A stretch of 64,000 nucleotides of DNA, taken from NCBI GenBank assembly GCA_044892505.1, contig CM097883.1:292454001-292518000 (forward strand), in the 5' to 3' direction. The position numbers and the translations under genes were made by a program. The notes below the pieces were generated by a model, which worked only from the letters and a program-made list of their open reading frames with translations, was not told the origin of the DNA and did not search any database. Position 1 is the stretch's first letter. Every line of letters begins with the position of its first letter. The DNA is from Schmidtea nova (Eukaryota). Shown here piece by piece: positions 10,763 through 41,015 of this stretch.

Positions 10763-11902
10763 AAATAATAAAAGTTATATTGATTTTGTTATGTTTAAAT
10801 TATATTTGAAGTAATTTTTCGTGTTTTGATTTCATATTTTTTTAGAAAACAATAAATAAGATATGTTTCTGATGTATTATTTTGAAATGTAATATTTTTC
10901 TTTTTTATCTATGTTTATAATAAAAGAACTATTAAAGAACCATTTTTGTTATATCGTTGCTTTTTTATATGAATAAATAATAAAATTTATTAAATAATGC
11001 TTATTTTATTTTTATAGAATAAATTAAAATACAAAATTTTCAAATATGATATCGAAGTTTGTATAAGTGTAAAAATTATGTTGCGCAGTTTGTAATTTCT
11101 CCTGCTCAGCCTTTTTATTTTCCGCGCAGAGACCCTCTCGTCTTAGAAGGAGCGTTGCTTAGGCGTACATTTTTTGCCTTGATTTCCCACCTTGAATCCA
11201 AAATATAAGTCGTAAGCAGTAAGAAATTTTGAATTTATTTTTCTCTTCTGTCTTTTAGTGACATAATGACCACAAGTGTAACAGAAACTAATTGAACTAT
11301 TTCTACAAGATCGTCTGCAGATTGAAGACATCCTGCAATAAAATACAGATAGGATCTAAATTCTGCCTTATTTTTACTGTAAATTGAATATAAATATAAA
11401 CTTACATTTACGCAATTTAAAAAAGGAATATTTGAAATTGAAAGTGTGCGAAAACTATAGCTTAAAACTGATTTAAGATAAAAAAACAAAATATAAATTT
11501 CAGAAGAATCTGGACGTGTAGGATCAAAATTTTTTTAAAAATTTCTACTAAATGTTGGGCCAGCCAAATAGAGGGAAAAGTGAAATAAAAGTGGAATAAT
11601 TAAAACAAAAAGAGAAAAATAAGGTAAAAAGGGGAATATTAATTTGTTAAAAGAAAAGAGTAATATAGTTAAAATATAGATAAATTAAGAACAAACTATA
11701 AATAAAAATAAATGAATTTCTAGATATTAACGGGCCCAGGAGACATCTAAAAACAAATAAAATACAAATAATAATAATTAAAACCAAATAAAAGTACTTG
11801 TTATTGAATAATTGTTTTTGAAACCCAGACCTCCGAGGAAGAATACAATCTAAAAAAAATAAAAATTAATTAGAATCAAAAATAATAATCAAACCCACCA
11901 TG

Positions 11903-11982
11903 AAATTGGCCAAACTTGATTGGTCAGTCTAGACCCGACTGATCAGTATAAATACTGATCAGATTTTGAACATAATCAGATT
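11903..11982 (+). promoter_or_regulatory. Putative LTR core promoter: two ATTGG (CCAAT) boxes, TATA box, Inr-like TCAGAT
   Basis: TATAAATA at 11947 inside the near-palindrome ctgatcagtataaatactgatcag (11939-11962); TCAGAT at 11976, 29 nt downstream. Confidence 0.55.
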
Positions 11983-12944
11983 GTTAAGATTGAAATTGTT
12001 AACCCCAGACTAAGTTGAGTTACATAGCATAACCAGACTGAGATCAACAGCTTGACAGAATTTTTCAACACTACAGATTAATCTTTGACCGAATTTTGTT
12101 ACAAGTAGACAGACTGAAATCAATATTCAAAATTCGATAAGCGAAAAACAGCAATCTATAACCGGATCAATTAGGTACTTTGGTTTCATTTTCGTTTTAT
12201 TATTTTTGTCATTCGATTCATGTTGATCATTTATATGTATTTATATATTAGAAATAAATTTTATTAACATAATATCGAATTTTTCATCATATTAATTTTG
12301 CGCCGATTGGGAGCTTTAGGTTCCCAAGGTGTCAGTCCGTGGCGTGGTGCTCGAGGGCTCCACACACGGTAAAGTAATAAATAACAAAATACGATTTTTA
12401 GTAGTTGAAGAGATTTGCACATGGGACACCCAACGAATCCGGGGAATTATTTTCCGATCATTTTAGCTATAGAGGAGGCGATTTTCAGATAAAGTCTAAC
12501 GATGTAGGATAGGAAAGAATTTTTTTTTTTTTTTTTTACTGTGAGGAGGCACAATTTTTCACCCTCACCACAGCACAGTCACTAAATAAACATCTAATCA
12601 ACCGTAGAAAATTATGTCGACCGCATTTGATACGAAAGGGGCGTTTTTCCGGGTAAGCTAGGAGGTACATGATGTGAGAGAGTTTCCGTTTTGAGATACA
12701 AATGTTTCGAGGTCCACGCAGACAAATCACCAATTTTCGACTATATTATTGATCGTAAACTGATAAATCTAAGCAGACACGAGAGTAATGTATACCGTAA
12801 CGAGCAACAGTTTTTTCTTGATTTCAGTTAAGGTCTAAGCCGAAGGCAAATAATAAAGGCATCACGATGAGAGATAACATCTACTATAATTAATTATTGA
12901 TTTAAATTGTTAACTATTATAAAATTCAGCATCGTTCTAGTATC

Positions 12945-13421
12945 ATGACTAAACACAGATTCACCATCAAAAAGCGACGAGAACGAGCCCGAATTAGCCC
13001 ATTAAAGCCGGCTCCATTTGAAATTTTGCAACAAATCCATCAAAAAATGTGGGCATGGCGCCGAGAGCTTGAAACCGCATGTCCATTTACAGTATGGGAC
13101 CATCCACGGCATCACGTATGGTACCCGGGATGCGCTAGCTGGCCAATCATTCCAGACGAGGAATTCGAATCATGGCACGCCGCCTGGTTCGTCCTGATGT
13201 TAGATAAACGGGGATTCCCGAGATGTGTAATCTATTGGGGGTTCATTCCAGCCTCCACATTCAAGGAATTGGGGTTCACTTTCCATACAGCAATACGACC
13301 CCTTCGGGAAGCCGAGAGGATCCGTTTTCAGCAGGCCTCGTCCAACTCCACTGGAATCAGCTCTCATCTACAAATCAGATCGATATTTTCGTACCGAGGG
13401 AAAGTGACCGAAGATGGATAG
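12945..13421 (+). CDS. LTR ORF1, 158 aa, Trp-rich, unknown function
   Basis: ATG ORF richer in GC than the flanks; identical protein in the 3' LTR; preceded by ttctag, followed by AATAAA. Confidence 0.65.
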   Translation: MTKHRFTIKKRRERARISPLKPAPFEILQQIHQKMWAWRRELETACPFTVWDHPRHHVWYPGCASWPIIPDEEFESWHAAWFVLMLDKRGFPRCVIYWGFIPASTFKELGFTFHTAIRPLREAERIRFQQASSNSTGISSHLQIRSIFSYRGKVTEDG

Positions 13422-38289: not shown

Positions 38290-38766
38290 ATGACTAAACA
38301 CAGATTCACCATCAAAAAGCGACGAGAACGAGCCCGAATTAGCCCATTAAAGCCGGCTCCATTTGAAATTTTGCAACAAATCCATCAAAAAATGTGGGCA
38401 TGGCGCCGAGAGCTTGAAACCGCATGTCCATTTACAGTATGGGACCATCCACGGCATCACGTATGGTACCCGGGATGCGCTAGCTGGCCAATCATTCCAG
38501 ACGAGGAATTCGAATCATGGCACGCCGCCTGGTTCGTCCTGATGTTAGATAAACGGGGATTCCCGAGATGTGTAATCTATTGGGGGTTCATTCCAGCCTC
38601 CACATTCAAGGAATTGGGGTTCACTTTCCATACAGCAATACGACCCCTTCGGGAAGCCGAGAGGATCCGTTTTCAGCAGGCCTCGTCCAACTCCACTGGA
38701 ATCAGCTCTCATCTACAAATCAGATCGATATTTTCGTACCGAGGGAAAGTGACCGAAGATGGATAG
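38290..38766 (+). CDS. LTR ORF1 copy in the 3' LTR
   Basis: Protein identical to 12945-13421. Confidence 0.65.
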   Translation: MTKHRFTIKKRRERARISPLKPAPFEILQQIHQKMWAWRRELETACPFTVWDHPRHHVWYPGCASWPIIPDEEFESWHAAWFVLMLDKRGFPRCVIYWGFIPASTFKELGFTFHTAIRPLREAERIRFQQASSNSTGISSHLQIRSIFSYRGKVTEDG

Positions 38767-39102
38767 TTGAATCAATGGCCACCTGTTCTAAATTAAATAA
38801 ATGTTTTAGAGAAATCTGAAGTGTTTCATTTTGTTAATAGCGCTATAATGTAGATGAGAAATTTATTAACCTCTAGTGTTGTAGATATTACAGTCAGTAG
38901 GACATTCTTTCACTAATGTAAAACAGTTGAGTAAGAATTTTGAGCCTCCAATCATTAAATAGAAAAATAATTTTTGTGTAAAGATTTAATACTTAAACAC
39001 AGTAGTATGCATTTTTGCTCCTAAATCGTAAATAGTCACTTAATTAAAATGACCTTGTTGATAGGTTCTCCAGCGAATTTATCGTTATAATATTCAGACA
39101 TC

Positions 39103-39687
39103 ATGCCGGTTTCAGAAAACTCGAAGAGAATCATGGGACAAATCCAAGATAGAAAGTTGAGGGACCAGCAGCGGCAGATCAAGCGACTCACGGTCGCCAA
39201 TGATGAATTGAGAGCGAAGTGGTTCTCGCCCGAACAAATGAAGGACCAATCGAAAAAACTCGAGCGAATGCAGGAAGCACTGGCCGCAACTAAATTGGAA
39301 CTAGACGCCGTCCAGAGAGAACTACGAAATTGCCTAAAGGCAGTAACAAGAAGTTATATCGACTCCGAATTACGAGCGCTAATCCGGCTGATCACGGCTC
39401 AGCGCTGGACACAAAGTACTTATCAAGATGTCGCTTGCGGGACGGAAGATGGTATCATCATGGCCCCCACTCTTGTAACGCCCGATTTGCCTACTTTTCA
39501 CAGTGATCCATCGAGAACAATGGCGTCAGCACCTGTCCTAAACCAACAGCTTCGAAAACACCGAATGGGATCGCGACAGCGTCGTCGTCGCCGAGAATTT
39601 GCGAAGCGCCTGGACGAGCAAATCCACCACTTGAACTCCTTAACCGAAGCGGAGTTGATTCAGGAGATTAGTCTGGAGTTTGCGTAG
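39103..39687 (+). CDS. LTR ORF2 copy in the 3' LTR
   Basis: Four amino-acid differences from 13758-14342 (T>A, P>L, M>T, A>P). Confidence 0.8.
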   Translation: MPVSENSKRIMGQIQDRKLRDQQRQIKRLTVANDELRAKWFSPEQMKDQSKKLERMQEALAATKLELDAVQRELRNCLKAVTRSYIDSELRALIRLITAQRWTQSTYQDVACGTEDGIIMAPTLVTPDLPTFHSDPSRTMASAPVLNQQLRKHRMGSRQRRRRREFAKRLDEQIHHLNSLTEAELIQEISLEFA

Positions 39688-41015
39688 GAAAACATCAGTG
39701 TCAGATAACAACCTGTTTTTTTTTTATTTTAATAAAAGTGTTTTTTGTGTAAATTTTGTCTCTCATCGTGTGATTTCACTAAATAAAATAAATGACTCGA
39801 TTAAATCATAGAAATAGAAAATCTCATCAGTATTTTTCTCGGACCGACCGTTTCTACGTAGAGACTGATTAATTACCTTGTAGATCCGTTAAGGAAAGTG
39901 CAATTGGGGAAAGCGGGTGATAGATCATGAGGACAGGTAGTATAAAATTCATGGGGAAACGAACATCCATAGAATGTAAATGCGTAAGACCTTCTATCGG
40001 CAGCAAGGACCCGAGGGAAGATAAATGGGGAGTAGTTTTGGCAACAAAGCTCACCTGCCCATCATTTTTCCACCACTGTATGCAGTACCAACTTGACTAG
40101 TAGGGAATAGGCAAGGGCATACGCGTGTAGTAGTCATGTTATGTATGGTTATGGGCGTGGAATCCCTAGTATACGTACTCATCAATAGTCGTTCAATTTA
40201 TGATTAACTATTTATTTGAATTACTTAAAACCCACCCATAATCCCAACATAAATATATTTGATGGGTTCGCAGATGATGAATACAAAATGACCTCAGTTC
40301 CATAAAGCCAGCAATGAATGAAAATTAAAAACGTGATCAGTCTAGCATTTTTCTATGTTTCGTGTAATTAAAAATGTTTAATAATAAATTTTTTGATGTC
40401 TCAGCAAAAAATAAATGCTACTTAATAACTTTTGACAAGTATTATATCGCTTTTTACAATCTTATTTGTTTTTGCCTATTTATTTAATCAAGTTTTGCTT
40501 TGATTACTTTCTGATTTTCCTTTCAGTGTTGATGTACATAGCTTAAAACTGATTTAAGATAAAAAAACAAAATTTAAAATTTCAGAAGAATCTGGACGTG
40601 TAGGATCAAAATGGATTCCATTTTCTTAATCACCTCAAAAATCTGATCTAGAAAAATCTAATGCTGTTAATTGAATCTAAAAAAAGTTTTTTGTTGCCCA
40701 GTGTAATTTATTAAATATATAGGTTTTTTTTATTATCAAATATTAACTTAAAATATATATGTGATTGGAAATTTCAAATACTCGAATACTAACAAAAATT
40801 GAACTGAATTATTCCTTGCTAGAGACGATGCTAAAATTGAGTTTTCTTCAAGAATAATTTTTATTACTTCATGTTTCGACATTATTGATAAAAGATTCTA
40901 GAGTTAAAAATTAAAAATAATGGTTTTAAATTAATTAAATATACTTTAAAGATAATACATTTTTATATTATTTTTATTTTTGGGATAAAATCCGCCTAAT
41001 AAAATGAAAGAAACT

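Follow-up and report, generated by a model that had tools for sequence, protein, structure and literature searches.

Relation to Burro and other known elements

The closest described counterparts of the element reported here are the Burro elements of planarians, which are about 30 kb long and have a first open reading frame (ORF1) of 4,873 amino acids (AA; 5,140 AA in Dugesia tigrina) that encodes a Gag with CCHC knuckles, MATH_TRAF_C, Ubi2/SUMO-like, BCL2, BIR and ankyrin domains, and an Env that lies in frame between BCL2 and the protease and matches mononegaviral fusion proteins (PMC6431247). Burro elements were proposed to be integrated proviruses that interfere with apoptosis and ubiquitination (PMC6431247). 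In the accessible parts of other papers, BURRO1 is PIWI-silenced and expressed upon smedwi-2 knockdown (PMC8532177), a BIR-RING protein of Burro1 shields stem cells from caspase-mediated death (Lee et al. 2026, Dev Cell, as cited in PMC13465017), and Burro is merely mentioned (PMC11410931, PMC13238120). Here we analyzed a 64,000-nucleotide stretch of Schmidtea nova DNA (contig CM097883.1, positions 292,454,001 to 292,518,000 of the forward strand; hereafter the window) with a Burro-like long terminal repeat (LTR) element at 11553-40249. The element is a real but decayed copy, and we consider it likely that it represents a recently active giant Env-bearing Ty3/Gypsy retrotransposon with the published Burro layout, in which captured TRAF, RING and Bcl-2-like domains would blunt cell-death and ubiquitin signalling where the element multiplies and so keep host cells alive, and in which Env and a tail of FN3 domains are predicted membrane proteins for cell-to-cell spread.

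The window family, which we call family A (relatives in the same genome are families B, C/D, E and F), resembles Burro1-4/GYPSM1 of Schmidtea mediterranea in its length of ~30 kb (the Burro internal region reaching up to 25 kb), a single ORF1 of ~4,900-5,100 AA with three CCHC knuckles, a putative ubiquitin/SUMO-like sequence before BCL2, an in-frame Env between BCL2 and the protease, ankyrin repeats, TRAF/MATH and RING. It differs from published Burro in having no BIR, in a full-length TRAF encoded by a separate ORF downstream of Pol rather than a MATH domain within ORF1, and in two features unmentioned for Burro in section 7 of PMC6431247, namely a tail of four FN3 domains with a transmembrane segment (TM) and two LTR-embedded ORFs under selection. 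The Burro-like element of Dugesia tigrina likewise has an in-frame Env, a TRAF in an accessory ORF and an ORF1 without MATH, but its TRAF ORF lies upstream, its knuckles number two and part of it resembles midasin, whereas in family A the TRAF is downstream and there are three knuckles. The B-IAP of Burro1, in the accessible part of its source, shares with family A an IAP-type RING on a giant element and is linked to protection from caspase-mediated death; it combines BIR and RING, whereas the window ORF has the RING only, and a BIR-RING ORF was found in sister family F. Because the BIR is missing and kinship is judged from architecture, we file family A as Burro-like rather than as one of Burro1-4, the named Burro elements being compared by description. 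The AT-rich genome with its TRAF expansion would fit the dugesiid or geoplanoid planarian hosts of Burro.

Errantiviruses such as Drosophila gypsy have a Ty3/Gypsy Pol, a 4-bp target duplication and an env of the baculovirus-F type that forms a separate third ORF after pol. The window Env, in contrast, is Monjiviricetes-type, in frame and upstream of Pol, which places family A outside that group. Plant Ogre/Tat elements are also large, with multi-kb LTRs and extra ORFs, but have no Env or apoptosis cargo and an internal region of 11-13 kb compared with 22 kb here (PMC6431247). The headline idea was already published for Burro, and the surprise is modest. The preliminary description of this locus had presented the domain set, env included, as possibly new, and most of that set proves to be described for Burro (PMC6431247 section 7); its broader picture holds, in that family A belongs to a complex Gypsy lineage with an env, selection maintains several of its cell-death and ubiquitin-signalling domains, and Burro is its precedent.

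Element boundaries, age and copies

The span of the element is exact, from TGTTG at 11553 to CAACA at 40249 (28,697 bp in total, 21,998 bp internal), in agreement with the bounded 28.7-kb element first described. The two LTRs are 99.5% identical (3,336 matches, 11 mismatches, 5 gap columns), and TAAA flanks the element on both sides as a 4-bp target-site duplication. The right TAAA is also the first four bases 3' of the 5' LTR, and the duplications were therefore checked in 12 sister copies, fetched as 12 of 15 non-self rows with each 10-kb stretch mapped separately. All 12 have their own, differing 4-bp duplications, and their LTR identities of 99.8-100% make the window copy somewhat older than its sisters. 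The primer-binding site is 18 bases long, begins 6 bases past the 5' LTR and is complementary in the sister copies to the 3' end of the host tRNA-Pro(TGG), the window copy deviating at 2 of the 18 positions. With TG..CA LTRs, a target duplication, a tRNA primer, the order protease (PR)-reverse transcriptase (RT)-RNase H (RH)-integrase (IN) and a Gypsy-type RT, the element is a Ty3/Gypsy LTR retrotransposon, and this structure shows that it replicates as one.

Of the 150 scored rows in a protein search with the RING ORF, 93 (counted by hand, the window among them) had at least 90% identity and 57 had 75-84%, which gives a lower bound of at least about 90 close copies. The coding strand of the element is A-rich and its GC content is higher than in the flanks. 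In the window copy and all 12 others, the bases ahead of the 3' LTR (36880-36901) finish in GGGGTCCCCGAGTGA and are not a plain polypurine tract. The boundary features are as follows.

11549..11552, no strand: left target-site duplication TAAA, compared with the 4-bp duplications in the 12 other copies
11553..14903, + strand: 5' LTR, 3,351 bp, TG...CA, from the LTR alignment
14910..14927, + strand: primer-binding site, tRNA-Pro(TGG)
16186..16902, + strand: leader tandem-repeat block with 30/61, 41 and 97/43-bp units
36902..40249, + strand: 3' LTR, 3,348 bp, from the LTR alignment
40250..40253, no strand: right target-site duplication TAAA

Polyprotein layout and selection on the cargo

The gene order is LTR(ORF a, ORF b)-RING-polyprotein-cc118-TRAF-cc353-TM ORF-LTR, cc118 and cc353 being ORFs of 118 and 353 AA, and the polyprotein itself runs Gag-ubiquitin-like domain-helical region-ubiquitin-like domain-acidic linker-Bcl2-Env-PR-RT-RH-IN-ankyrin-FN3x4-TM. 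In 4 of the 12 sister copies a single open frame, read through three adjacent stretches, extends from Gag to 32912 and encodes about 4,980 AA from the first ATG (codon counts added across stretches). The other eight are broken at sites of their own, none in common with the window copy, in which the polyprotein gene has four frameshifts and three stops and the TRAF ORF has one stop.

Selection was assessed from changes common to at least two of the 13 copies, using simple site counts and skipping codons with multiple changes. Shared amino-acid changes were significantly below expectation in 19 of 23 coding regions and in none of five shifted-frame controls (0.86-2.99). The ratio of nonsynonymous to synonymous shared change (dN/dS) was 0.01 for Env, 0.02 for Pol, 0.05 for the RING ORF, 0.06 for MATH, 0.08-0.09 for the LTR ORFs, 0.10 for the N-terminal part of TRAF, 0.22 for the ankyrin region and 0.24 for FN3. 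The Env ectodomain was the most constrained, with 2 amino-acid and 83 silent shared changes, and the four regions without significance were all short (the N part of Bcl2, the second ankyrin part, cc118 and the TM ORF). Based on these data, the cargo of family A is kept under purifying selection.

Domains of the polyprotein

The Gag, Pol and Env of the preliminary description are all present, as are its ankyrin repeats. Zinc knuckle, aspartic protease, RT, RNase H, integrase, ankyrin, MATH, C3HC4 RING and Monjiviricetes_fusion (E 2e-57) scored above the Pfam cut-offs, with Retrotrans_gag and zf-TRAF just under the curated ones. Pfam placed zf-CCHC in two stretches, and sequence reading gives three knuckles. 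Every protein that the RT search brought up was a generic Gypsy protein with no more than 50% identity, and none carried the name Burro. The region between protease and RT is ~220 AA long and has no Pfam dUTPase match, the published Burro dUTPase call having used HHpred. The polyprotein features are the following.

17939..32912, + strand: giant polyprotein gene, about 4,980 codons
17939..18810, + strand: Gag capsid-like domain (Retrotrans_gag E 1.6e-4) and three CCHC knuckles, with a frameshift near 18420
19396..19644, + strand: likely ubiquitin-like domain 1, the weakest call, from alignment and joint profile
20713..20973, + strand: putative ubiquitin-like domain 2, from Ubiquitin_4 and joint profile
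22110..22800, + strand: Bcl-2-like domain, BH2 kept, BH1 degenerate, frameshifted in the window copy
22904..24826, + strand: Env, with a signal-like segment (22904-22969), a Monjiviricetes-type fusion ectodomain and a TM (24647-24742); stop at 24575-24577 in this copy
25307..28134, + strand: protease (DTG 25349), RT (YIDD 26564), RNase H and integrase, in Ty3/Gypsy order by Pfam
28999..30400, + strand: ankyrin-repeat region, by Pfam for 28999-29268 and by eye for the remainder
30960..32750, + strand: predicted type-I membrane tail with a signal-like segment (30960-31025), four FN3-like repeats and a TM (32664-32750)
31020-31271, 31518-31763, 31812-32051 and 32181-32417, + strand: FN3-like repeats 1-4, from a shared motif and a fold model

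The Bcl-2-like segment has no direct Pfam match, and phmmer returned nothing from the PDB at E 10. A profile built from five sequences of the segment, however, matches the BH1-BH2 part of Bcl-xL (E 1.4e-5) and reaches 95% probability against host Bcl-2, and a Bcl-2 domain occupies the same pre-Env position in sister families, in some cases above the Pfam cut-off (5 of 15 fetched loci with Env downstream). Profile and position thus point indirectly to a Bcl-2-like domain before Env, as the preliminary description had it. A single-sequence fold of the segment was discarded (predicted local distance difference test, pLDDT, 46).

For the two ubiquitin-like domains upstream of Bcl2, also called in the preliminary description, the matches are concordant but weak (E 0.003-0.03), comprising Ubiquitin_4 at E 0.025, a joint profile against ubiquitin variants at E 0.028 and PF11976 at E 0.003 in one of five aligned members, and we retain both as weakly supported candidates. 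The region of ~230 AA between them (20014-20700) is without a family match and strongly constrained (dN/dS 0.04).

Past the ankyrin region, four Cys-containing repeats have a common motif. One of them models as a six-stranded beta sandwich (pLDDT 86), and the top 50 structural matches of this model are almost all FN3 domains (best Z 8.6, root-mean-square deviation 2.8, 75 aligned). Sequence profiles fell short of significance, with tenascin at E 0.29 and 1.3 and Pfam fn3 at E 0.17 in one of eight repeats; a profile of the region reached only 5% probability against host FN3, yet above 60 of 60 shuffles, and 1.84 billion representatives searched held no relative. Hydrophobic segments follow Bcl-2, the Env ectodomain and the last FN3, and another precedes the first FN3. 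The modelled fold bears out the FN3 membrane part of the preliminary description, which had taken it for separate proteins; the four domains and TM are the C-terminus of one polyprotein and are predicted to lie at the cell surface. This tail is absent from PMC6431247 section 7 and literature searches on FN3 in elements of this kind turned up nothing relevant, although figures or supplements of Grohme 2018 and Lee 2026 may list it, and it is the one part possibly undescribed for Burro-type elements.

TRAF, RING and other accessory ORFs

The full TRAF of the preliminary description stands, its MATH part matching TRAF5/3/2 and its RING-zinc-finger part TRAF6/2 among the PDB matches listed, and 10 of the 12 copies have it as a single frame of 469 codons. 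The RING is nearest to the RINGs of XIAP (E 4.5e-11) and the cIAPs. Pfam scans of 18 window frames and 8 sister-copy segments gave no BIR domain; an IAP has at least one BIR, so that the 153-AA ORF carries an XIAP-like RING and is not a true IAP. Eleven of the 12 copies keep the RING ORF open and all 12 the 118-AA ORF; for the 353-AA ORF and for the TM ORF the figure is 10 each. Within the LTR, ORF a stays open over at least 141 AA in every one of the 12 copies and has no Pfam match; ORF b is full length in 11 of 12, without a significant family match. A BIR-like reading of ORF a by eye was dropped for want of a Pfam match at E 1, and ORF b has distant relatives in another repeat of the genome (locus L056). 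These ORFs are listed below.

12945..13421, repeated at 38290-38766, + strand: LTR-embedded ORF a, 158 AA, dN/dS 0.09
13758..14342, repeated at 39103-39687, + strand: LTR-embedded ORF b, 194 AA, dN/dS 0.08
15251..15712, + strand: accessory ORF of 153 AA with a C-terminal IAP-type RING and no BIR, dN/dS 0.05
33038..33394, + strand: accessory ORF of 118 AA, likely coiled coil, with homologues in families E and F, selection not significant
33486..34868, + strand: full-length TRAF (RING, zinc fingers, coiled coil, MATH) of about 460 AA, interrupted in the window copy by a stop at 34371-34373
34982..36043, + strand: accessory ORF of 353 AA, likely coiled coil, dN/dS 0.11
36126..36697, + strand: single-TM accessory ORF of about 190 AA, frameshifted in the window copy

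Related families in the same genome

Family E, found via TRAF, has the order of family A including the RING and the FN3 tail, with Pol 81% identical; FN3 is the least conserved polyprotein segment between the two (39% compared with 76% for the Bcl2-Env segment). Its LTRs are 1.7 kb long, without a match to the two LTR ORFs. Family B is about 17 kb long with 1-kb LTRs and a single 3,232-AA Gag-Bcl2-Env-Pol ORF without an FN3 tail, followed by an ORF for a DEDD (RNase_T) exonuclease, and in families C/D Bcl2-Env is in frame too. A tree of RT and RNase H was built with 40 rows. Its candidates were 36 of the 120 database hits, one sequence was excluded because its coverage was short, and the families of this genome on it are A, E and B, which group with one other protein (support 82/99).

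Family F, with multiple copies and two loci on C1, has direct repeats of at least 8.7 kb that hold ankyrin, a TRAF of 490 AA and a BIR-RING IAP of 399 AA, and an inner part with a ubiquitin-like domain, a protease and ankyrin. It has the same tRNA-Pro primer site as family A, and it carries the BIR-RING gene at the place, flanked by TRAF and the cc353 homologue, that in family A is only a 113-bp gap. In the stretches read, tblastn gave no match to Gag, Env, RT or IN, and family F is likely a non-autonomous, cargo-only derivative. One family F locus also contains an open frame of 894 AA that weakly matches endonuclease VII (L092:7318-9999), probably a nested insertion.

One genome holds a cargo series from B (Bcl2-Env and exonuclease) through A/E (RING, TRAF, ankyrin, FN3) to F (TRAF and BIR-IAP, seemingly without Env and RT). 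With such a series it can be tested which cargo is important, whether protection from death depends on a BIR and whether Burro elements produce particles. Outside this genome, the ENA proteins P0121, P0122 and P0123 have the same Env together with two or more aspartic-protease-like domains, one of the three with a Bcl-2-like start and one with a Gag.

Proposed function and origin of the cargo

In the scheme that we propose, the ubiquitin-like and ankyrin parts would, together with TRAF, RING and the Bcl-2-like domain, most likely act on ubiquitin-dependent death signalling. The element protease may cut Gag and Pol from the polyprotein, and the hydrophobic segment past Bcl-2 would be both a membrane anchor and an internal signal that places Env in the endoplasmic reticulum. 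At the Env TM the chain would re-enter the cytosol, where Pol and ankyrin would lie. The four FN3 domains would then be exported by a second signal and anchored by the last TM, and the small ORFs may be expressed from spliced or LTR-driven RNAs. This predicted topology is supported by the hydrophobic segments, which come in the order that it needs. As for the origin of the cargo, host MATH/TRAF frames form dense clusters at about 405-455 Mb of C2, several of them intronless and full length; the clustered intronless TRAF frames are 25-32% identical to the element TRAF. Since intronless TRAF frames cluster in the same genome and TRAFs are expanded in planarians (PMC6109357, in its accessible part), piecemeal capture from the host appears the simplest origin.

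Several observations weigh against this picture of a Burro-like element that guards its host cells and spreads by membrane proteins. The Bcl-2 segment of family A alone reaches only 19% probability against host Bcl-2, and its BH1, canonically NWGR, is degenerate, with BH2 kept. A BIR is found in Burro1-4 and is missing from family A. Kinship with Burro rests on architecture and on a 17/20 match of one of three published BURRO1 oligos to the FN3 linker at 31374-31393 (0 of 100 shuffles), a hint only; the other two had no match in the element at four mismatches, and two tested had no match in the genome at 0-1 mismatch. The clade of families A, E and B in the RT-RNase H tree is not starred on bootstrap and includes the one extra protein. 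Family F keeps cargo and seems to be without Env and RT, so that the function of the cargo need not involve particles. Lastly, the 12 copies were chosen by their 3' half, and 3' cargo is thus present in them by construction.

The alternative that survives best is an endogenous virus that is truly infectious and moves between animals, with Env as its fusion protein and the FN3 tail as a second surface protein that attaches to receptors. The constraint on the Env ectodomain would fit such a virus, as would the divergence of FN3 between families A and E, attachment proteins often being poorly conserved, and the related Env-protease polyproteins come from three ENA assemblies. Families B and C/D share Env, however, and B is without the FN3 tail, which makes the tail unnecessary for Env-bearing spread; Env may equally serve soma-to-germline or cell-to-cell transfer within one animal, for which the Env of errantiviruses is a precedent. 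We regard such a virus as possible but unlikely. A more elaborate version, which we put forward as speculation that is probably wrong in some part, is an enveloped Burro-lineage virus with split entry from a single polyprotein of 5,000 AA, in which a mononegavirus-like fusogen before Pol would act with a captured receptor-binding spike of four FN3 domains after the integrase, and family F, with TRAF and IAP in its giant terminal repeats, would be its cargo-only satellites. Should the FN3 tail be an attachment protein, the element would have two glycoproteins, which is unusual among LTR elements.

Mutualism between host and transposon, with the family tolerated since its cargo protects stem cells as for Burro1, seems doubtful to us. 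The protection of stem cells by Burro1 (Lee et al. 2026, as cited in the accessible part of PMC13465017) favors it, and so does family F, which appears to spread with cargo only and has TRAF and BIR-RING within its direct repeats. The active part reported there for Burro1 is BIR plus RING, however, and family A has the RING only; moreover, selection on shared changes is equally expected from element replication alone, and the window copy is broken.

An origin of the whole toolkit in one large DNA virus, with NF-kB as its target, is very improbable; the preliminary description had called the toolkit large-DNA-virus-style and spoken of several captured components of one pathway. Herpes-, baculo- and poxviruses are known to modulate their hosts with vBcl-2, IAP and ankyrin proteins, but the PDB matches listed for the TRAF, RING and Bcl-2 cargo are cellular, with no large-DNA-virus protein among them, and the host genome has its own intronless TRAF frames. 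Cargo also varies by sister family (an exonuclease in B, a BIR-IAP in F), which suggests piecemeal gain and loss, and the claim of one NF-kB pathway is unsupported, in that no part specific to NF-kB was found, the RING has no BIR and intronless TRAF frames cluster in the genome. Finally, passive cargo acquired by late insertion, nested repeats or misassembly, which the fragmentation of the window copy into many short ORFs might suggest and which the preliminary description had tied to the absence of cargo from other copies, can be set aside as already refuted, because the cargo is under purifying selection, fused in frame with Gag and Pol, colinear in 12 of 12 copies, the 5' cargo included despite the 3'-based choice, and in the same order in the divergent family E.

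Other observations in the window and genome

Genes for tRNA-Pro(TGG) form a long tandem array of 308-bp units at C1:459.61-459.66 Mb, with 900 pattern matches genome-wide. A short host repeat flanks the insertion at 11457-11530 and 40538-40612, about 20 and 290 bases from the element ends, and immediately downstream of the element lies a 124-bp inverted repeat (41008-41256; 92% complementary, 1-base loop). Diverged inverted copies (71%) of another repeat occur at 1730-1985 and 63453-63708 and at 42779-43028 and 63012-63174, and overlap ORFs at 1661-2098 and 63289-63819.

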